In this document: piece after piece, positions 1-63,595 of the stretch
How the letters are laid out: each line of letters starts with the position of its first letter
Numbering within the stretch: position 1 is the first letter of the stretch
DNA from: an uncultured Bdellovibrionales bacterium
Lineage (GTDB): Bacteria; Patescibacteriota; Minisyncoccia; Moranbacterales; GWC2-37-73
Assembly (NCBI GenBank): GCA_964484505.1
Contig: CAZAFB010000006.1
Span: 14,337-78,336, forward strand
Length of the DNA stretch: 64,000 nt
Reading direction: 5' to 3'
The notes under the pieces: generated by a model
Told to the model about the DNA's origin: nothing
The model's input: the letters and a program-made list of their open reading frames with translations, nothing else
Database searches by the model: none
Translations under genes and position numbers: made by a program

Positions 1-39
1 AAAATCAAGAAAAGTCGAAAAATATATAAAAACCCCTGG

Positions 40-543
40 ATGGAGGTTTTTGAAGATGAAGTCATCAGACCCGATGAGAAAGATGGGATTTGCGGTATTG
101 TCAAAATATCAGACGGTGTTTGCATTCTCCCGATTGACGACAACGGTTACGTTTATTTGGTAGATCAATTTCGTTATGCCCTAGGAAAAAATGTTATTGA
201 AGTTGCAGGCGGCTCGCTTGAAAAAGGTGAAGAAACATTAGAGGCTGCCAAAAGGGAACTTCAGGAAGAAGTTGGCATATTGGCTGATGAATTCATTTCT
301 TTGGGCACAGTACGTCCGCTAACAACAATCATTAAGTCTTCATCCACTCTCTGTTTGGCTCGGAAATTGCATTTCGTCGAAGCCACTCCCGAAACAACAG
401 AAAAAATCAAAGTCCTGAAGGTTAAATTTGAAGAAGCAGTCGAAATGGTCATGGATGGCAGAATCAATCACGGACCAAGCTGCGTATTGATTTTAAAAGC
501 AAAAGAACATCTTCAATCACTCCCCCAACACATGCAACTCTGA
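40..543 (+). CDS. Nudix hydrolase (ADP-ribose pyrophosphatase-like)
   Basis: Canonical Nudix box GGSLEKGEETLEAAKRELQEEVGI in the 167-aa ORF. Confidence 0.8.
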   Translation: MEVFEDEVIRPDEKDGICGIVKISDGVCILPIDDNGYVYLVDQFRYALGKNVIEVAGGSLEKGEETLEAAKRELQEEVGILADEFISLGTVRPLTTIIKSSSTLCLARKLHFVEATPETTEKIKVLKVKFEEAVEMVMDGRINHGPSCVLILKAKEHLQSLPQHMQL

Positions 544-2316
544 AATCGCGCGGGTGAGGGCGACGTAGAGAAGGTCGCGATCAATGCGGGATTTTTCGCG
601 TGTCAGCTCATCGGCGAAATCAATATTTTCTTTGGCGCGCATCGCCGCAAAATCCATGCCCACCAAACACACCGCGTCAAACTCCACGCCTTGCGCTTCA
701 TGCATCGTCATCACATGTACTTTGTCGTTTACTGCAAAAGCTTCGCGCAATTTCAAAAGCTTGATTTCTTCCCTGGCCAACACGCCCACGCTGCCACCAT
801 CCAGATTATCAATGATTTTATTGATATAGGATATTTCTTCATCCAATGATTCACAACTCATCTCGGCAACTTCCTTGCCTTCCTTGATACCTTCCGGAAT
901 TTCAATCGCGTATCCCAAAGATTTGATATATTCCAAAATATTCTTGGTATTGCGATATACTTTTTGCAAAACTACTTTTCTTTCCCCTTCTATATTCTCA
1001 CCTATTTGTTGCCAATCACGAATCGTCCCCAGTCGCACCTGCTGCGCCGTGTCCCCAACATAGAGCATTGAGCGCGCTTTGCTGCTGATGCATGATTTAA
1101 TCAAGGAAAGTTGTTCCGGCAAATAGTTTTGAAACTCATCCATTACTGCCAAGGAATATTCCAGCGGCACAAAACCTCTCTTCTTTCTGATCAGTCCGTT
1201 TTTCATTTCAATATATTGATCTTTGATCACGCCAAGCGACTCATTGGTATTCAGATATGCTTTAAGCAAAATCACCAGATCGATGCGATCAAGTTTCTTT
1301 TCTTTCTTTTGCCTGGAAAACAATCTTTTTTGCTCCGGGCTGAAATATGGAAAATATATGTTTTCCAAAACCGCATAGGCGCTTCGCTTGGAAAACTCCC
1401 CGATTTTGGCGTGGCGCATGGCTTTGATTTTTTGAAATTCATAGGCATCTTTCTCTTTTTCGTCCGTGCCATATCTTATTGCATATTGCAAATCAAGGCT
1501 CAGGATTTGCAGCGCCCATTCGGAAAATGTGGTAATCAAAACATCGTCAATGCCAAGCTCCGGAAGTAGCTGCGAAAAATATTCTTTTGTGCCATTATCT
1601 TGTACAAACACAATAATCGAATCGCTGGCATAGATATTTGCCAAATCCGGAGATTGCACCAAATAGGCGACGCGGTGCAACGCCAACGTTGTCTTGCCGC
1701 TTCCTGCCGGGCCGGAAATCAAAAATGATCCCACGTGATGCGCGCGAATCACCTGGTCTTGCGCCTTTTCCATCTGCGCCACGATTTCCGGCAGCACAAA
1801 ACCGGTCTTGCGATTGGAAAAATATTCTTGATAGATCAACTCGCGCGCCTTGCCAACTTCTTCCGTCGCCAAAAATTTCACTTTGCCATTAACAATCATA
1901 TATTGATCCTTGCGAAGCATTTGGGCTTTTTGCATTTTGCCGTCAGGTCTTTCATATTCCACTGCCCCGGGATTTTCAAAACGCATTTGAGAAGCAGGCG
2001 TTATCCAGGAATATATTTCCTCATCGCCGAAACCGAATTTACCAAAATAGATACTCTTGGTCTCCTTTTCACCATCCCACACCACATCGCAGCGCACGAA
2101 ATATGGCGACCCTTCCAAATGCGCCAACTCTCCCAAACGCTTTTCGTTATATTGCAAAATGCGATGTTCAACCACAACATCGGCGCTACGAACCGATTTT
2201 AAATCCTGTTTCGCTTTGGAAACAAGTTGAACCAGTTTCGTTTTTTCATTCATAATCCGCTCACACACTGAAGCGACGTGCTTTCTCGCACTCTCTAAGA
2301 TTTTTTCCTTTTCCAT
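517..2316 (-). CDS. UvrD/Rep/HelD-like SF1 DNA helicase
   Basis: Walker A ISGPAGSGKTTLALHRV. C-terminal UvrD-like motifs (VHVMTMHEAQGVEFD, LYVALTRA). An N-terminal ~200-aa extension resembles helicase IV/HelD. Start placed at MEKEK (2316) because a hairpin plus U-run terminator for the upstream gene lies at 2337-2375; the ORF track extends to 2424. Confidence 0.75.
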   Translation of the reverse strand: MEKEKILESARKHVASVCERIMNEKTKLVQLVSKAKQDLKSVRSADVVVEHRILQYNEKRLGELAHLEGSPYFVRCDVVWDGEKETKSIYFGKFGFGDEEIYSWITPASQMRFENPGAVEYERPDGKMQKAQMLRKDQYMIVNGKVKFLATEEVGKARELIYQEYFSNRKTGFVLPEIVAQMEKAQDQVIRAHHVGSFLISGPAGSGKTTLALHRVAYLVQSPDLANIYASDSIIVFVQDNGTKEYFSQLLPELGIDDVLITTFSEWALQILSLDLQYAIRYGTDEKEKDAYEFQKIKAMRHAKIGEFSKRSAYAVLENIYFPYFSPEQKRLFSRQKKEKKLDRIDLVILLKAYLNTNESLGVIKDQYIEMKNGLIRKKRGFVPLEYSLAVMDEFQNYLPEQLSLIKSCISSKARSMLYVGDTAQQVRLGTIRDWQQIGENIEGERKVVLQKVYRNTKNILEYIKSLGYAIEIPEGIKEGKEVAEMSCESLDEEISYINKIIDNLDGGSVGVLAREEIKLLKLREAFAVNDKVHVMTMHEAQGVEFDAVCLVGMDFAAMRAKENIDFADELTREKSRIDRDLLYVALTRAISELHVLGE

Positions 2317-2336
2317 ATATCTTATTTTCGGATTGC

Positions 2337-2375
2337 AAAAAATTAAAAATCGACCCGTTTCGGGTACAATCCGTC
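2337..2375 (-). terminator. intrinsic terminator (ACCCGAAACGGGU hairpin plus U-run) downstream of gene 2515-3264
   Basis: Minus-strand RNA ...ACCCGAAACGGGUCGAUUUUUAAUUUUUUG. Confidence 0.45.
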
Positions 2376-2483
2376 CCACCCGAAAAGAAGTCGATTTGAA
2401 GAAGAAAATGCGCCGAAGCGCCAAGATTTTATAACAAACCTATCATATCACATATTTTCACAATCTGTCAAGCACCCATTATT

Positions 2484-2510
2484 ACAACCCCAGTTTCTCC
2501 AAAAACCCTT
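2484..2510. repeat. 26-bp direct repeat copy 1 (aaccccagTttctccaaaaaccctt)
   Basis: Matches 4605-4631 at 24/25 positions plus 1 indel. Confidence 0.7.
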
Positions 2511-2514
2511 AATT

Positions 2515-3264
2515 TTACAATGCTTCAAATATAAGTGGCAGATATTCAGCACAAGGATTTGTTTTTTCAGCCAACCAAATTTCTTTGTCTTTCATATCTT
2601 TGGAAATATTTATAATCTTAGAAAGCTCCGGTTTTTCCCCTTTTTCCAAAAGACTTTTTTCGAAATCAACATAATGCTTCGTGAATTCGGAAATATTCAT
2701 AGGAATCTTTGCCCAATACACCACTCCTAAAAAGTCATGCGGGCCGCTTTCTACAATTACCCAAGGATAAAACTCGCTTATTTGATTGGAGCTGTTCACA
2801 GACAGTCCAACTTCTTCAGCCATCTCATTGGCCGCGTTCCTCTCAATATCTATAATTCGACCATCATCAAAAAGGTCTTCTCTGGTTATACCACCTCCAA
2901 TACATTGGATCCTGCCAGGCAACGCCGTACTTCCTCCCATCTCTCCAAATATTAATTCACCATCAGAAGTTTCTATCATTATTGAGGAATGCACAACTCT
3001 GCAGGCATGTTTTTCTTCAATAATTCCATTGATAGTCGCCAGATAATGAGCATAATCAGAAAGAGCTATTTCTATCAATATTTCACTTTCATTTTCCTCG
3101 ATTTTTGAAATCGTAAAAACATCGCCGCGCCTAAAGTTCTTCCCACTTTCAATCAACTCTTCCCAATATTTTTCAATTTTGAAAATCACCTCTTCCGGCA
3201 GATTAATCTTCTCACCGGAATATGATATTTTTGGTGTTTTTTTTAAGAGAGTGAGCTTGTTCAT
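2515..3264 (-). CDS. hypothetical protein with degenerate Nudix-like motif
   Basis: GGGITRED...ERNAANEMAEEVGL resembles Gx5E...REUxEExGU but has an insert and lacks the canonical R. Confidence 0.4.
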   Translation of the reverse strand: MNKLTLLKKTPKISYSGEKINLPEEVIFKIEKYWEELIESGKNFRRGDVFTISKIEENESEILIEIALSDYAHYLATINGIIEEKHACRVVHSSIMIETSDGELIFGEMGGSTALPGRIQCIGGGITREDLFDDGRIIDIERNAANEMAEEVGLSVNSSNQISEFYPWVIVESGPHDFLGVVYWAKIPMNISEFTKHYVDFEKSLLEKGEKPELSKIINISKDMKDKEIWLAEKTNPCAEYLPLIFEAL

Positions 3265-3278
3265 ATTTTTTCTATTTA

Positions 3279-4520
3279 TTATTTATTTAAAATTTTTTTA
3301 TATATCTCTTCAAATGCCTTCGTTGCAAATTCATTATAAACCAAATCGCATTTTTGGGGAGCCTCAAGAGGATACGCTTCAAATTTTCCTTTTTCATAAT
3401 AACCTTCCGGATCAATATAAACAACCACCAAACCTTTCTTGCGAGCTGCTTGATGAATTTTCCTCCTATCAGCATGCGAACCCACCACTATTAAAGACTT
3501 TGCGTTGTCGTGAAAATTAATTTTTGGAATAATATTTTCAGATTCATATTTTCTAACATAATACTCTTCAAGTCCCGCTTTTCTAATAAGACCGTCAAAA
3601 TTATTTGTTATAACAGGTCCAACTATCATTCCTTTTTTATGTAATTCTTTAATTATTTCGTGAAATTTAGTCGGTTCTGCCAGAAAACATTTCTTTTGCA
3701 TATTTGTCATTATTCTATAAGCCTCTTTCGGATTTTCAATTATATCAAATATCAAATGATCATCAGGATAACGAAAAATGGCTTTTTTCTTAATTTGATC
3801 TGTTACACAATACACTTCATGCAAATATTTCAAAGGTGGAACACCGGCCTCTATGGATGGTCCACATCCTAATTCTATTTGGGCGGGGAAAAGATCAATT
3901 ATTTTTTCTATAATATTTCCTGTAATCGGTTTTTGCTTTTTTAATTTCTGTCTAAAACCAGTTTTTAATATATACCAAGGTTTATTTTTAAAATCATCAT
4001 CAAGCGCAATCCACTCGGAGTAAACGGTTATATCCATTGAATTATATTCTTTAGGAAATAGTCTGCCTTCAGCCAAATCTGCTGGATGTTGTTTATAAAT
4101 TTTTACATCAATACGCAAATCTTCATTAACAAATTGAAGATGTTTTTTACAATTTATATTATCAACAAAATCAATCTTCCAACCATTTTGCGCACTTTCA
4201 AGCATGCAACTCTCGAGTTCATCTATCTCAGAAGAAAGTAGGCTTAAATTTATCCATAAATAACTCTCTTTAAGCACAAGATCGAATTTATGATGCTTAT
4301 TTTCTTGAATATCAAAGCAATGAAAATAATGTAACATTCTCCTCCTGCAGTCATTTGGATTTTTCCATCCGGATTCATCCTTGTTTTGTTTTTCTTGTGT
4401 TCTTCTCCAAATTCCCTCTTCCGTCCTAGGATTATGCGTTTCAGTTTCCGCATAAAAATTTTTCCACTTTTTCATTTGTTCTTCGGACAGATTCTCCAAC
4501 ACTACAAACGGAAATTTCAT
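3279..4520 (-). CDS. SIR2-like (DHS-like NAD-binding) domain protein with unknown ~200-aa N-terminal domain
   Basis: The C-terminal half carries LGCGPSIEAGVPPL (compare sirtuin GAGIS..GIPDFR), ITNNFDGLI (compare TQNIDxLH) and VVGSH...VVVYID (Rossmann end). There is no zinc-ribbon module, as in defensive prokaryotic SIR2 domains. Confidence 0.55.
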   Translation of the reverse strand: MKFPFVVLENLSEEQMKKWKNFYAETETHNPRTEEGIWRRTQEKQNKDESGWKNPNDCRRRMLHYFHCFDIQENKHHKFDLVLKESYLWINLSLLSSEIDELESCMLESAQNGWKIDFVDNINCKKHLQFVNEDLRIDVKIYKQHPADLAEGRLFPKEYNSMDITVYSEWIALDDDFKNKPWYILKTGFRQKLKKQKPITGNIIEKIIDLFPAQIELGCGPSIEAGVPPLKYLHEVYCVTDQIKKKAIFRYPDDHLIFDIIENPKEAYRIMTNMQKKCFLAEPTKFHEIIKELHKKGMIVGPVITNNFDGLIRKAGLEEYYVRKYESENIIPKINFHDNAKSLIVVGSHADRRKIHQAARKKGLVVVYIDPEGYYEKGKFEAYPLEAPQKCDLVYNEFATKAFEEIYKKILNK

Positions 4521-4598
4521 AGAAATAAACTCAAATTATAGAAAAATTATCCTTATAGCACATTACAAGCCATGTCAATATTGCTGTAAAAAAATTCG

Positions 4599-5402
4599 TT
4601 ATAATAACCCCAGCTTCTCCAAAAACCCCTTGAGTTCTCCGCCTTTGAGCGTGCGGTGTTGGCCGGGCTTGAGGCCGGCAAGTTTTATGTTCAAGATGCG
4701 TACGCGTTTGAGTGAAGTTACGCTGTAACCGAGCGCGTTACACATGCGGCGGATTTGGCGTTTTTTGCCTTCGTTCAAAATTATCGAAAAAGCGCTGGTG
4801 CGAATTTTGCGCGCTTCGCACGGACGTGTTTTATATCCGTCATCAAGCACCACACCTTTTTCCATTTTGTCGATAAATTTCTGCTCGACTTCCTTGTCGA
4901 CCGTGACCACATATTCCTTGTCATGATTGCGCTCCGGCTCCAGCAAACGACCAGTCACGCGTCCGTCATTGGTAAGCATAATCAGTCCTTCCGAATCTTT
5001 GTCTAGCCTCCCAACAGGAAACACTTTCGATTTATATTTCGAATTTGAATCTAAGTCTTTCCGCAAAGTTCCGCGTGAAGTCCGCGTAAGTCCGCGCGTA
5101 TGGGAATTTTTTAAATTCCCATACGACAATATGTCTTCAATGCTTTTTTCGTCGCCTTGCGGACTGTGCGTGATGATGCCGCGCGGCTTGTAATATGCCA
5201 AATATACAAGCTCGTTTTTTCTTTTTTGATCACCCACCACTTCCACCTTGTCATTTTCATTAACCATATCGCCCAACTTCGCTCTCTTGCCGTTAATCAA
5301 AACTTTGCCAGCCTCAAGAAGCCGGTCAGCCTCCCGCCGACTGCAAATCGCCTCATGCGCCAAATACTTATTGATTCTCGTCGGATATTTTTCTGAATTC
5401 AT
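4599..5402 (-). CDS. pseudouridine synthase, RluB/RsuA family (S4 domain plus catalytic domain)
   Basis: N-terminal S4 domain (INKYLAHEAICSRREADRLLEAGKVLING). Catalytic motif VFPVGRLDKDSEGLIMLTNDG. Confidence 0.8.
   Translation of the reverse strand: MNSEKYPTRINKYLAHEAICSRREADRLLEAGKVLINGKRAKLGDMVNENDKVEVVGDQKRKNELVYLAYYKPRGIITHSPQGDEKSIEDILSYGNLKNSHTRGLTRTSRGTLRKDLDSNSKYKSKVFPVGRLDKDSEGLIMLTNDGRVTGRLLEPERNHDKEYVVTVDKEVEQKFIDKMEKGVVLDDGYKTRPCEARKIRTSAFSIILNEGKKRQIRRMCNALGYSVTSLKRVRILNIKLAGLKPGQHRTLKGGELKGFLEKLGLL
4605..4631. repeat. 26-bp direct repeat copy 2 (overlaps the 3' end of the pseudouridine synthase gene)
   Basis: aaccccagCttctccaaaaacccctt. Confidence 0.7.
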
Positions 5403-5437: not shown

Positions 5438-5917
5438 TTATTTTATGGAATTTAAAATAATTTCTGCCGTTTCTTTCGCAGCTTGGTTCGTATTGTCGAT
5501 GACAACCCCGAACGACGGGTTATTTATTCCGATCGAGTAGTGATATTCGATTCTCTGTTTCTCCCAATCATCCAGTTCGCGCTCTCCCCTGTTTTTTAGG
5601 ACTACTTCTTTTTCTGGATTCAACGTAAAGACAAATATATTATCATTTAGATCACCCAACTCGCCAATCATATAATCATAATTTTTCTGCGAAAACGGAT
5701 ATGGAACAATTACATTGAAACTTCTTTTAGAAAAGTTTCTGATCAACAAAATTGCATTTTCCAAATTGATCTGAATTTTCTCTTCAATAGAACTTCCTTT
5801 GATAAAATCCGAGAGGCTATCAATCTCAACGACCACCGGTCTTTCAATTTTTTCGGCCAATATTTTCGACACCGTACTCTTGCCTGAATTTATCGAACCA
5901 TTTATAAAAATTATCAT
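5438..5917 (-). CDS. P-loop NTPase/kinase (AAA_33-like)
   Basis: Walker A INGSINSGKST at the N-terminus; about 160 aa. Confidence 0.5.
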   Translation of the reverse strand: MIIFINGSINSGKSTVSKILAEKIERPVVVEIDSLSDFIKGSSIEEKIQINLENAILLIRNFSKRSFNVIVPYPFSQKNYDYMIGELGDLNDNIFVFTLNPEKEVVLKNRGERELDDWEKQRIEYHYSIGINNPSFGVVIDNTNQAAKETAEIILNSIK

Positions 5918-5940
5918 AACAACCCATGCTTATAAAAAAT

Positions 5941-6000
5941 TATTTCACTACTATATATGCTAGAATGGTAGTGGTCACAAAATCTAGTTAAACCTTTTCC
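5941..6000. repeat. ~55-bp intergenic repeat copy 1 containing CTACCAT-N10-ATGGTAG palindrome (promoter/operator-like)
   Basis: cactactatatatgctagaatggtagtggtcacaaaatctagttaaacc; near-identical copy at 6478-6535. Confidence 0.6.
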
Positions 6001-6389
6001 AGCATCAAAATTCTTTTTCGAAAACCACCTCTTTTGCTTGCTTTTTCTTTTTGAATCTTTCGAACAGTTTCAGCATCAAGGTTATTGAATTCCAGAATTG
6101 CATCAATCAATTCCAAAACATCTGCCACTTCCTCAGCTACATGTTCTTTTCCTTCTGCGGCTGCCAATTCGCGAGCTTCTTCCTCAACTTTTTTCATAAG
6201 GAACTTTGAATATTCGTTGTCATCCTCCAAAATTCTTGTTTTTACCTCCTTGCCAGTAAGCTTTCCCACAACTTCAGGAATATTATCCCTAACTAATTTA
6301 GGATACTCATTTTCCTTTTCCAAATTTGTTTCAAAATGTTGAAACCCTATTTCTTTTTCCATATACTTTTTATCAAAAAAATAAATCAA
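5988..6389 (-). CDS. MazG-like nucleotide pyrophosphohydrolase
   Basis: EExxE/EEVADVLELIDA motif typical of the MazG/HisE all-alpha NTP-PPase family. Confidence 0.6.
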   Translation of the reverse strand: MIYFFDKKYMEKEIGFQHFETNLEKENEYPKLVRDNIPEVVGKLTGKEVKTRILEDDNEYSKFLMKKVEEEARELAAAEGKEHVAEEVADVLELIDAILEFNNLDAETVRKIQKEKASKRGGFRKRILMLEKV

Positions 6390-6477
6390 TTTACGACTTC
6401 TAGCGGATAAATATCGAAAGCGACTTCTTCATATGGATGCACCGCTTTCATTTTTTCAACAACATTTTTCAAAATTG

Positions 6478-6535
6478 TCCACTACCATATATGCTAGAAT
6501 GGTAGTAGTCACAAAGCCTAGTTAAACTTTTTCCA
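6478..6535. repeat. ~55-bp intergenic repeat copy 2 (promoter/operator-like)
   Basis: cactaccatatatgctagaatggtagtagtcacaaagcctagttaaac. Confidence 0.6.
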
Positions 6536-41381: not shown

Positions 41382-41436
41382 CCAAATGACCCGAATATAA
41401 AACGCCCGATAAGCGCACTAGCCCCTTTTTATTAAT

Positions 41437-41566
41437 CCAGGACTTATGCGTTTGAATTTTCAAAATTTCAGCAAATATTGTTTTTTGCGCACTGCCGGCC
41501 GACCCGAGAGGGAAAGGCAAGCAAAAAATATATATTTGCTTGAAATTTATGCAAACGCATAACTCC
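41437..41566. mobile_element. ~130-bp MITE-like element copy 1 with 11-bp terminal inverted repeats (TTATGCGTTTG...CAAACGCATAA)
   Basis: Over 90% identical to 42508-42637. GC-rich core gcgcactgccggccgacccgagagggaaaggcaagc. Confidence 0.5.
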
Positions 41567-42472: not shown

Positions 42473-42507
42473 AAATTTGTTTTGACTATAAATTATTTTT
42501 TATAAAT

Positions 42508-42637
42508 TTAGGACTTACGCGTTTGAATTTTTTAAATTTCAGCAAATATTATTTTTTGCGCACTGCCGGCCGACCCGAGAGGGAAAGGCAAGCAAAAAAT
42601 ATATATTTGCTTGGAATTTAGGCAAACGTGTGACTCT
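42508..42637. mobile_element. ~130-bp MITE-like element copy 2
   Basis: See copy 1. Located upstream of gene 42155-42472. Confidence 0.5.
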
Positions 42638-55383: not shown

Positions 55384-55637
55384 CACCCAAATTTTTGCCT
55401 CTCTTTTTCTTTTATATTACACTAAGGAAGAGGGCCAAAAACTTCTGATACAAGCGAACGTTCAGCGCCATCGCTCGCTTCGCTCACTCTGGCACTGAAC
55501 GGGCGCAGCTTGACAGCCTCATTCGTCACTGCCGCATCGCTCCGCTCGCGACAGCGCCGAACTCGGCTTATGCGAAATAATTGTCACCACGCTAAGGCGT
55601 GGCTCCAATTACATCGCATACGCCGCGCCCGTTATGT
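55384..55637 (+). repeat. GC-rich structured intergenic repeat, copy A (~250 bp)
   Basis: The core cgttcagcgccatcgctcgcttcgctcactctggcactgaacgggcgcagc...gcgtggctccaattacatcgcatacgccgcgcccgttat is nearly identical to copies at 60862-61096 and 63213-63466. Confidence 0.85.
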
Positions 55638-55818
55638 GAAATAAAATTCTTTTTCTTTTTTAAATTTGCTTTTTTATAATAAGGAAAAATAAGTTTTTTT
55701 ATCTTTTATAGAGGGGTATAAGGTGTCTTTTTTGCTCCTGGAATCGCAAAAAAGACGATTTTATTTTTATTATAAAATACGCTATAATATATGCAGTTAA
55801 ATCTGCTATTATTAAATT

Positions 55819-60861: not shown

Positions 60862-61096
60862 TTTTCTCTCCCAAATTTTTCTTCCGCTAAGCTACAGAAA
60901 AACTTCGGATATGCCTAACGTTCAGCGCCATCGCTCGCTTCGCTCACTCTGGCACTGAACGGGCGCAGCTTGACAGCCTCATTCGTCACTGCCGCATCGC
61001 TCCGCTCGCGACAGCGCCGAACTCGGCTTATGCGAAATAATTGTCACCACGCTAAGGCGTGGCTCCAATTACATCGCATACGCCGCGCCCGTTATG
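60862..61096 (+). repeat. GC-rich structured intergenic repeat, copy B
   Basis: See copy A. Its 5' AT-rich part is shorter. Confidence 0.85.
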
Positions 61097-61208
61097 CGCA
61101 ATCGCAAAAAACCTCTCTTTATTAATTCATTTAATAATTTTGGCGAAATGCGGATGCAGGTCGAGAATAACTCAAATGTAATAGATAATTAATTTAAGTA
61201 AAAAATTT

Positions 61209-63212: not shown

Positions 63213-63466
63213 CACCCAAATTTTTGCTTCTTTTCTCTTTATTGATATAATATGGGAAGCGAAGCAAAAACTTCAGATACACAGAAACGTTCAGCGCCAT
63301 CGCTCGCTTCGCTCACTCTGGCACTGAACGGGCGCAGCTTGACAGCCTCATTCGTCACTGCCGCATCGCTCCGCTCGCGACAGCGCCGAACTCGGCTTAT
63401 GCGAAATAATTGTCACCACGCTAAGGCGTGGCTCCAATTACATCGCATACGCCGCGCCCGTTATAC
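63213..63466 (+). repeat. GC-rich structured intergenic repeat, copy C
   Basis: See copy A. Confidence 0.85.
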
Positions 63467-63595
63467 GAAATTTTGTTCAAAAATATTTTTTTATTTTATA
63501 TTTGAGCCCTTTTGAAATTTTTTTGGAAAAGGAAAACGCGCCAGAGGTCCGAAGACATGACGCGTTGCATGACGAGAAAGCACTGTTCTCGCTTA

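Follow-up and report, generated by a model that had tools for sequence, protein, structure and literature searches.

Enzymes of the sirtuin fold are known to act as deacylases or ADP-ribosyltransferases of proteins and as NADases in immunity. The NADases of bacterial defence (ThsA, DSR1/DSR2, SIR2-HerA, SIR2-APAZ/pAgo and Avs5) combine the SIR2 fold with a sporadic horizontal distribution and a position in variable genomic spots, three features which recur in the protein B described below. Integrative islands at gene 3′ ends and transposable elements with target duplications are characterized by flanking direct repeats, one of which restores the 3′ end of the target gene, and by a relative whose site is empty. 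In SirTM-macrodomain operons a sirtuin-fold transferase is coupled with an ADP-ribose-processing enzyme (PMC4518038). The human Nudix enzyme NUDT22, a UDP-glucose/galactose pyrophosphatase, converts UDP-glucose into UMP and glucose-1-phosphate (PMC10101856). Here we describe a two-gene cassette that shares traits with all of these systems. It is located in a 64-kb stretch of contig CAZAFB010000006.1 (the window, whose positions serve as coordinates throughout) and encodes a sirtuin-fold protein (gene B) and a NUDT22-like Nudix hydrolase (gene A) between the genes for an RluF-like 23S rRNA pseudouridine synthase and a HelD-like helicase, all four genes being on the minus strand.

Insertion of the cassette between RluF and HelD

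The cassette occupies positions 2511–4598 (2,088 bp) and consists of a 78-bp upstream region, gene B (3279–4520; 413 aa), a 14-bp spacer, gene A (2515–3264; 249 aa) and further 4 bp. Both open reading frames are present as an earlier reading, made from the sequence alone and referred to below as the sequence-only reading, had described them. The G+C content is ca. 0.31 in B, ca. 0.39 in A and 0.42–0.49 in the flanks. The region upstream of B (4521–4598) carries a promoter-like TTGACA...TATAAG arrangement and, according to the alignment, is not represented in the empty site; the cassette brings this promoter-like region with it.

The 26-bp direct repeats that had been noticed on both sides of the two genes are real and confined to two copies, and they are longer than originally given. 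The motif AACCCCAGYTTCTCCAAAAACCC is found in the 64 kb at 2486–2508 and 4606–4628 only, and 100 dinucleotide-preserving shuffles yielded no match even at three mismatches. It is therefore neither a dispersed, genome-wide motif nor a terminator consensus, two origins which the sequence-only reading had itself brought up. A repeat search extended the pair to 30 nt with 90% identity (2479–2508 and 4599–4628), and comparison with an empty site extended it to 32 bp.

This empty site was detected on contig L173, one of the contigs read for close relatives of the RluF protein (L173 RluF is 83% identical). A few bases after the RluF stop codon, L173 continues with TAATGGGTGCTTGACAGATT…, the promoter and leader of HelD, and HelD itself follows without any cargo in between. 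BLASTN aligned window positions 5043–4599 to L173 548–992 and window positions 2510–524 to L173 961–2946, such that the two flanks share 32 bp of L173 (961–992). Hence, this segment is present twice in the window, as copy 2 at 4599–4630 and as copy 1 at 2479–2510. A relative with the pseudouridine synthase gene directly before the helicase gene, as the sequence-only reading had envisaged, thus exists and holds a single copy of the 32 bp. Copy 2 marks the left insertion junction and provides the present 3′ end of the RluF-like gene (4599–5402), namely the last 9–10 codons and the stop codon coding for the C-terminus ...KGFLEKLGLL*, by which the protein becomes one residue longer. Copy 1 marks the right junction beside the HelD promoter and is the displaced original 3′ end; it reads GFLEKLGL* in frame on the minus strand, the same peptide with no gene ahead of it, and together with its adjoining sequence it matches the L173 stretch nearly base for base. 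The FLEKLGLL terminus had been recognized before and attributed to an rluB-like gene. The terminus is confirmed; the gene is RluF-like, as the best NCBIfam score is obtained with RluF (217 bits) and RluB scores 95 bits.

The 32-bp direct repeat is thus a target duplication, which arose when the cassette was inserted precisely where the RluF stop codon meets the HelD promoter. No third open reading frame for a recombinase is present in the cassette, whose non-coding gaps of 78, 14 and 4 bp leave no room for one, and no inverted repeat pairs its two ends. The element is, in consequence, a promoter-bearing and recombinase-less accessory cassette of 2.1 kb in a Patescibacteria (Moranbacteria-like) genome.

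The junction as a hotspot for exchangeable cargo

Related genomes carry the same or different cargo at this place. Strain-level variants (L088–L093, L171 and L172) contain the same B-A cassette. In L084, whose RluF is 75% identical, RluF is followed by A (78% identical), a canonical Nudix gene for 151 aa (NUDIX151) and then HelD, B being absent; on both sides of the A+NUDIX151 cargo the 17-bp sequence CTTGACATATTGTGAA of the HelD −35 region is present as a perfect direct repeat (L084 9966–9982 and 11425–11441). Downstream of A, a stretch in L084 matches the RluF end in 17 of 22 positions; it may be a decayed relic of that end and would tentatively suggest nested events. The RluF–HelD junction of L170 accommodates an ASCH gene and a GNAT-ASCH gene without any repeat, that of L174 a Nudix gene encoding 150 aa (NUDIX150). 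Moreover, L084 possesses a PRTase-CE gene between perfect 75-bp repeats of the RluF 5′ end (L084 8108–8182 and 9243–9317). The window itself contains, beyond the RluF-like gene, a MazG-like gene for a 133-aa protein (5988–6389, minus strand) between 65-nt direct repeats of 86% identity (5937–6001 and 6471–6535), an arrangement that resembles another inserted cassette, complete with a target duplication, beside the first. The 65-nt repeat includes the palindrome ACTACCAT…ATGGTAGT and is located upstream of a kinase-like gene (5438–5917).

An independent event is documented in the unrelated Patescibacteria contig L009, where the B-A pair lies behind a histidine kinase gene (938 aa) and between two copies of GGCGAT(T/A)TAGGGAGAGGG with a match of 17/18 (L009 9948–9965 and 12053–12070), the repeat spanning the kinase stop codon. 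The gene order HisKA, B, A is also found in L005 and in the contig of P0003. When 18 other loci were inspected for direct repeats around B-A or B, a credible one was seen in L009 only.

Taken by event, the repeats measure 17, 18, 32, 65 and 75 bp, with none in L170, and this variability bears on their origin. The sequence-only reading had offered a target duplication or an att site as explanations; the former is borne out by the empty site, and the latter lacks both an integrase and a conserved core. In particular, the repeats might be attL and attR of an integrase-mediated element, or a by-product of homologous recombination between strains instead of a duplication formed at insertion. One repeat does overlap a gene 3′ end, as in many integrative elements, and the cassette is identical between strains with differing flanks and mosaic genomes. 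Against this stand the cassette without an integrase or space for one, and the unrelated repeats of independent insertions (32 bp around the present cassette, 18 bp in L009, 17 bp as well as 75 bp in L084, none in L170), whose varying length implies that no conserved att core exists; we therefore regard such an origin as very unlikely. The variable repeats fit either the fill-in of widely staggered breaks or a single-crossover integration of a circular intermediate via short homology. The cassette consequently differs from the integrative islands and transposable elements introduced above by the absence of integrase, transposase, terminal inverted repeats and conserved att core, and from classical insertion sequences and miniature inverted-repeat transposable elements (MITEs) by duplications that are long (17–75 bp) and not of a short fixed length.

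The strain variants also reveal how the surroundings of the cassette change. Between the window and L171 positions 2416–4607 are 100% identical (B 1242/1242, A 750/750), and the flanks diverge, RluF at ca. 9% of the aligned positions, with an additional indel of 87 bp, and HelD at ca. 7–8% (85 mismatches within 1336–2415). Over positions 1–5402 the strains appear as mosaics relative to L171 and L172, HelD being divergent in the former and near-identical in the latter. This mosaicism indicates frequent homologous recombination around the hotspot. An identical cassette within divergent flanks fits a recent spread of the cassette; alternatively, the flanks could have been replaced by recombination with cassette-less donors, since tracts of such recombination must end at the cassette edge. 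The 68 metagenome loci fetched with the HelD protein were all at most 68% identical and had lost the synteny with RluF, and no further states of the hotspot were learned from them. The locus displays gene-cassette turnover in a bacterium with an ultra-small genome and without a visible recombinase, with the site empty in one relative, at least four alternative cargos and duplications that range from 17 to 75 bp, and offers a handle on the movement of accessory genes in Patescibacteria.

A sirtuin fold without zinc ribbon and catalytic histidine

Protein B is built up of a β-rich N-terminal domain (residues ca. 1–200) and a C-terminal sirtuin-fold domain for binding of nicotinamide adenine dinucleotide (NAD+). 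Pfam SIR2 (PF02146) aligns residues 218–318 of B to the first half of the profile with an E-value of 8.2e-8, which is over the gathering threshold and covers ca. half of the profile. The match of the CobB-type NCBIfam models is limited to residues 257–318. With hhalign, residues 217–317 were aligned to residues 20–109 of Sir2Tm at 95% probability (the part of the Sir2Tm sequence that was cross-checked agrees), the motifs GCGPS (218–222), GVPPL and TNNFD (305–309) of B corresponding to GAGIS, GIPDF and TQNID, respectively. B thereby has a Rossmann NAD+-binding domain with motifs of the GAGxS and TQNID types. Together with the structure comparison, in which housekeeping sirtuins resemble the fold of B more closely than ThsA, Avs5 or PsSIR2 do, these matches substantiate what the sequence-only reading had proposed, a C-terminal SIR2-like NAD-binding domain lacking a Zn ribbon and preceded by an unknown N-terminal domain.

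All profile alignments to sirtuins terminate at residue 317 or 318, and the segment that follows is where B departs from them. Among 46 aligned members no conserved histidine qualifies as catalytic general base; between D309 and G347 the only invariant residues are R323 and P332, so that His116 of Sir2Tm, which is placed 15 residues after D101, has no counterpart in B. In the model, the core strands 319–321 and 342–346 are ca. 20 residues apart, and the sequence contains no CxxC pairs; a segment of this length without cysteine pairs leaves B without a Zn ribbon. The 46 members share 24 invariant columns, including N307 and D309 of the nicotinamide pocket and the motif HADRR (349–353), which in the model adjoins the predicted dinucleotide site. 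WRR (residues 38–40), part of a WRRTQ consensus, is invariant in the N-terminal domain. In comparison with classical sirtuins (PF02146; Sir2Tm, Af1 Sir2, PfSir2A, CobB), B is devoid of the Zn-ribbon module and of the catalytic histidine, near whose position an invariant arginine is found, and in addition it possesses a conserved extra N-terminal domain of 200 aa and the new invariant HADRR. B has thus kept the motifs of the NAD+/nicotinamide pocket, lost the Zn ribbon and the general-base histidine and gained a new N-terminal domain, and we file it as a new sirtuin-fold variant, neither a classical sirtuin nor a member of the defence SIR2 proteins.

A word-indexed search retrieved 402 proteins of the B family, nearly all of ca. 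400–420 aa and alignable over the full length, which means that the two domains are conserved together. Relatives are present in 197 of ca. 185,000 GTDB species genomes, mostly of Streptomyces and also of Patescibacteria, Bacillaceae, Alphaproteobacteria, Myxococcota and Bacteroidota. The family comprises more than 400 sequence clusters, and the sources that give its members a name use 'hypothetical protein' throughout except for one 'SIR2 family protein' and one fusion named 'NUDIX domain-containing protein'.

A divergent Nudix hydrolase related to NUDT22

The window A protein is matched by none of the Pfam, NCBIfam and PADLOC models. Its affiliation emerged from the family profile, which detected 3ees (E 6.5e-4) and, weakly, NUDT22 in the PDB, and from the AlphaFold2 model (pLDDT, the predicted local distance difference test, 93.6). 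In a Foldseek search the model matched human NUDT22 (5lor_A) over its whole length (E 8.7e-13; template modelling score 0.69, query-normalised; 284 aligned columns), and other Nudix enzymes matched the catalytic domain only; of the 137 PDB matches at E≤0.001, the best 50 were all Nudix proteins. Judged by its predicted fold, A is a member of the Nudix superfamily, with NUDT22 as the nearest relative in architecture.

The Nudix box of A preserves E147, E150 and E151 as invariant residues and G153 as a nearly invariant one (≥90%). It deviates from the consensus in that the arginine of 'REUXEE' has given way to other residues (N146 in the window protein) and the spacing or loop between Gly and Glu is expanded. 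In the fused relative P0352 the Pfam NUDIX model barely passes (21.7 vs 21.1 bits). The earlier characterization of A as degenerate Nudix-like therefore holds for the fold and not for the degeneracy, as the catalytic glutamates are invariant; on the basis of its sequence, A is a divergent and probably active Nudix enzyme. In an exhaustive HMMER search, 186 clusters (50% identity) were assigned to the A family with a cut-off of E≤1e-30, a number that rose to 418 with E≤1e-10. A and NUDT22 share the two-domain architecture, and both are missed by the standard Nudix profile; the bacterial A protein is shorter (249 vs ca. 300 aa) and only 13–15% identical, from which degree of identity the substrate of A is not inferable. 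One relative (P0399, 668 aa) contains an A-type Nudix domain (residues 414–651) fused to an NDP-hexose C-methyltransferase (Methyltransf_13 and Methyltransf_14), a link of the A family to sugar-nucleotide chemistry in which B has no part.

Coupling of B and A and the neighbourhoods of their relatives

Gene neighbourhoods were counted in 85 B-family loci. In 12 of them, belonging to Candidate Phyla Radiation (CPR) bacteria, Bacillaceae, Alphaproteobacteria and Actinomycetota, an A-type gene lies directly downstream of B, often with overlapping stop and start codons. B and A are fused in P0077 (646 aa; BLASTP E 1e-20 to A) and P0352 (654 aa; E 1e-91 to B), and P0096 (525 aa) joins B to a subsequent canonical Nudix domain. 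The link between the two genes drawn by the sequence-only reading is thus backed by adjacency and by fusion, and a functional coupling of B and A is supported. In a rough neighbour-joining tree the A-linked B proteins fall into two separate clades, one of which is basal to the Streptomyces clade linked to genes of the UDP-glucose/GDP-mannose-dehydrogenase (Ugd) family. From this distribution the Nudix partnership is widespread and probably old. In the Streptomyces loci iterated searches with hidden Markov models found no A-type partners; the Ugd-family gene appears as partner instead.

The Ugd-family gene is adjacent to and co-directional with B in 58 of the 85 loci, including those of Moraniibacteriota, Larkinella and Nonomuraea. 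On large linear Streptomyces plasmids (L098–L101, L176 and L177) a recurrent operon comprises B, a class-III aminotransferase, the Ugd-family dehydrogenase, a GNAT protein and an RmlD-like 'sugar nucleotide-binding protein'; the B homologues therein are all labelled 'hypothetical protein', and on the Streptomyces plasmid H6 genes for an XRE protein and an ATP-binding regulator precede the operon. Alphaproteobacterial operons consist of a methyltransferase, B, A, an unknown gene, an NTP-transferase, a glycosyltransferase of family GT4, a class-IV aminotransferase and a HAD protein, of which actinobacterial loci show a shorter form (B, A, class-IV aminotransferase, HAD, GT4). In Bacillaceae the order is B, A, ATP-grasp, MFS and ATP-grasp, and at other loci an O-methyltransferase gene, or a methyltransferase gene plus one of family GT2, is found directly upstream of B. 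The B family has preserved the NAD pocket, dropped the deacylase machinery and become tied to enzymes of the sugar-nucleotide type and, by fusion, to Nudix.

Possible function of the pair

We tentatively propose that B and A constitute an uncharacterised pair of NAD+-using enzymes with an accessory function in biosynthesis or metabolism rather than in immune NAD+ depletion, a view we consider the likeliest of those weighed here and plausible, if not yet probable. With the same reserve, we infer from motifs and neighbourhoods that the pair might transfer ADP-ribose from NAD+ to an acceptor other than a protein and then trim the product by means of the Nudix enzyme. In sirtuin catalysis the displacement of nicotinamide and transfer of the ADP-ribosyl group is the step which depends least on the histidine. 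B would use NAD+ as ADP-ribosyl donor, release nicotinamide and catalyse this first half of sirtuin chemistry only, namely nicotinamide displacement and transfer of ADP-ribose to a nucleophile. The N-terminal domain would bind the acceptor, either a small molecule or a sugar/glycan intermediate; base exchange would be an alternative chemistry of B. Subsequently, A might cleave the pyrophosphate of the ADP-ribosyl product into AMP and a 5-phosphoribosyl product, and in the larger operons of relatives the HAD phosphatases, dehydrogenases, aminotransferases and acyl-/acetyl-, methyl- and glycosyltransferases might elaborate the latter.

Precedents are available for the individual steps. Besides the cleavage of UDP-glucose by NUDT22 mentioned above, Nudix enzymes convert ADP-ribosyl conjugates into phosphoribosyl conjugates (PMC4680915), and the sirtuin CobB is reported, in work cited in PMC9503650, to compensate for the phosphoribosyltransferase CobT in the formation of α-ribazole phosphate. 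The proposed logic, transfer then trim, would correspond to that of two-step ribosylation routes, in which a transfer of the phosphoribosyl group from phosphoribosyl pyrophosphate is combined with a phosphatase (CobT/CobC, or CobB or CobT with NAD+/nicotinic acid mononucleotide), with the difference that the donor would be NAD+ handled by a sirtuin fold and that a Nudix enzyme would remove AMP. Relative to the SirTM-macrodomain operons, the partner is a Nudix pyrophosphatase and not a macrodomain, and the neighbours point to small-molecule or sugar chemistry and not to a protein target. A literature search for a characterised system of SIR2 with Nudix or SIR2 with Ugd found none; the nearest cases were predicted sirtuin/Nudix neighbourhoods for RNA repair in phages, which involve a different sirtuin clade. 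If the proposal is correct, sirtuin chemistry would extend to the biosynthesis of small molecules or glycans. In its widest form it would describe an unrecognised route of NAD+-dependent (phospho)ribosylation, in which a transferase of the sirtuin fold without histidine and Zn but with an acceptor domain, and NUDT22-like removal of AMP, seed pathways of Streptomyces, Bacillaceae and Proteobacteria, and in which the pair travels in Patescibacteria as a promoter-bearing, recombinase-less cassette inserting at an intergenic hotspot with long target duplications of variable length. This full scenario is speculative, and we rate it as rather unlikely to hold in all its parts.

Several observations weigh against the proposed biosynthetic role. 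The Ugd association derives mostly from one genus, Streptomyces, and the B-A pair of the window stands alone, without other biosynthetic genes. A without B (L084, L094–L097) and B without A both occur, and the two are thus not obligate partners. The loop 321–340 of the B model is predicted with low confidence, and with the catalytic histidine lost B may only bind NAD+ or another dinucleotide. The main local caveat is the other cargo of the hotspot (Nudix, ASCH, MazG-like, Fic and PRTase-CE), which resembles the gene sets of conflict systems. It leads directly to the view of the sequence-only reading, namely that a defensive, NAD+-depleting SIR2 protein is accompanied here by a Nudix enzyme; in such a two-gene anti-phage module B would deplete NAD+ upon infection like ThsA, DSR or SIR2-HerA, and A would process ADP-ribose or a signal. 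The SIR2 fold of B with its intact NAD pocket, the mobility and low G+C content of a cassette in a variable hotspot that also accommodates other accessory genes centred on nucleotides (the Fic, MazG-like, Nudix, ASCH and PRTase-CE genes just named), the sporadic family (197 of ca. 185,000 species genomes) and its occurrence on Streptomyces plasmids, in one case close to an AbiV gene, would be in line with defence. The lost catalytic histidine and the closer relationship of the fold to housekeeping sirtuins than to ThsA, Avs5 and PsSIR2 are not. PADLOC models (E≤0.001) matched neither B nor A nor 45 of 46 B-family members, the exception being one marginal pAgo match (E 9e-4), and across the 85 loci none of the fused or adjacent sensors or partners typical of defence SIR2 proteins (SLOG, TIR, HerA, Argonaute, STAND NTPase) was encountered. 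B differs in these two respects, the missing match to curated models and the missing sensor or partner, from the known defence SIR2 systems. Its neighbours are instead Nudix, Ugd, aminotransferases, GNAT, glycosyltransferases, methyltransferases, HAD, ATP-grasp and MFS proteins, with no defence sensor or effector among them. Neither phage genomes (one weak partial tblastn match) nor viral structure libraries (one weak Foldseek match) contained a close relative of B. The defence claim is thus probably wrong and a defence module an unlikely explanation, and the combination of SIR2 and Nudix in a mobile island should not be labelled as defence automatically.

Three further explanations were weighed. 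B might be a constitutive NAD+ glycohydrolase producing nicotinamide and ADP-ribose and A a pyrophosphatase (for ADP-ribose or NDP-sugars) producing AMP and ribose-5-phosphate, by which the pair would feed the nucleotide and pentose pools of a metabolically reduced Patescibacterium. The domain chemistry of both proteins is compatible with such a salvage, CPR bacteria rely on salvage, and the solitary pair of the window has no genes for making an acceptor beside it. Nevertheless, the conserved N-terminal domain of 200 aa would be left unexplained, as would the close association with genes for dehydrogenases, aminotransferases, acetyltransferases, glycosyltransferases and ATP-grasp proteins in free-living Streptomyces, Bacillaceae and Proteobacteria, and ordinary ADP-ribose pyrophosphatases are already there, as the NudE-like gene at the left edge of the window illustrates; salvage is hence improbable in our view. 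If B were instead a 'writer' of ADP-ribose on macromolecules and A a Nudix 'eraser/converter', in a toxin-antitoxin-like or regulatory manner comparable to SirTM-macrodomain or DarT-DarG, the coupling with an ADP-ribose-processing enzyme would be accounted for. Such a pair is nonetheless quite improbable given that no macrodomain or ARH partner is present, that B-A fusions as well as loci with B or A only are ill-suited to antagonists, and that the operons contain small-molecule enzymes. Finally, B might be catalytically inactive and serve partner enzymes as an NAD(H)- or nucleotide-sugar-binding subunit, sensor or scaffold, for which the loss of general-base histidine and Zn module and the variety of partners (Nudix, Ugd, methyltransferase) would speak. 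The 24 invariant columns, among them N307, D309 and HADRR, retained over ca. 35–60% identity suggest catalysis instead and render an inactive B highly improbable.

Flanking genes and further repeats

The target gene (4599–5402) codes for a protein with S4 and PseudoU_synth_2 domains. At 5044–5130 it contains an in-frame insertion of 87 bp (29 aa) which is absent in L171, L172 and L173 and which exhibits the palindrome ATGGGAATTT…AAATTCCCAT and short repeats of the CGCGGA type. On the other side of the cassette, the HelD-like superfamily 1 helicase (517–2316), of the RNA polymerase recycling factor family, constitutes a conserved flank outside the cassette; it scores 149 bits with NCBIfam HelD_BACSU, under the 419-bit cut-off of that model. 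Its strong promoter (2442–2471, minus strand; TTGACA-18-TATGAT, 11/12 match, extended −10) comes directly after the RluF stop codon in the empty-site genome. Within the promoter and leader region of HelD (2317–2471, minus strand), the 5′ leader is near-identical in L084, L170 and L173, includes a hairpin with T-run (2365–2353) and has an RNA folding z-score of −2.95; an attenuating or regulatory role of this leader is conceivable. A search of window positions 2250–2520, which comprise the junction and the HelD leader and exclude the 78-bp upstream region of the cassette, gave no Rfam match.

At the left edge a NudE-like Nudix open reading frame (40–543, plus strand) is truncated by the end of the window; in strain variants it encodes 187 aa with an N-terminal NDPSase_N domain. 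A UvrD/HelD-like helicase and a canonical Nudix gene thus do lie beside the insertion, as had been stated from the sequence. As members of the module both were rejected, because nothing separates RluF from HelD in L173, and L084, L170 and L173 all retain HelD irrespective of the cargo.

Two other repeats were recorded in the window. A relatively G+C-rich repeat of 186 nt is present in three intergenic copies of 99% identity (55457–55642, 60917–61102 and 63286–63471); it reached the gathering score of no Rfam family, and a MITE, a non-coding RNA or a regulatory element are candidates for its nature. The other is a direct repeat of 140 nt with 91% identity (41426–41565 and 42497–42636), whose copies are spaced by 1,071 bp.

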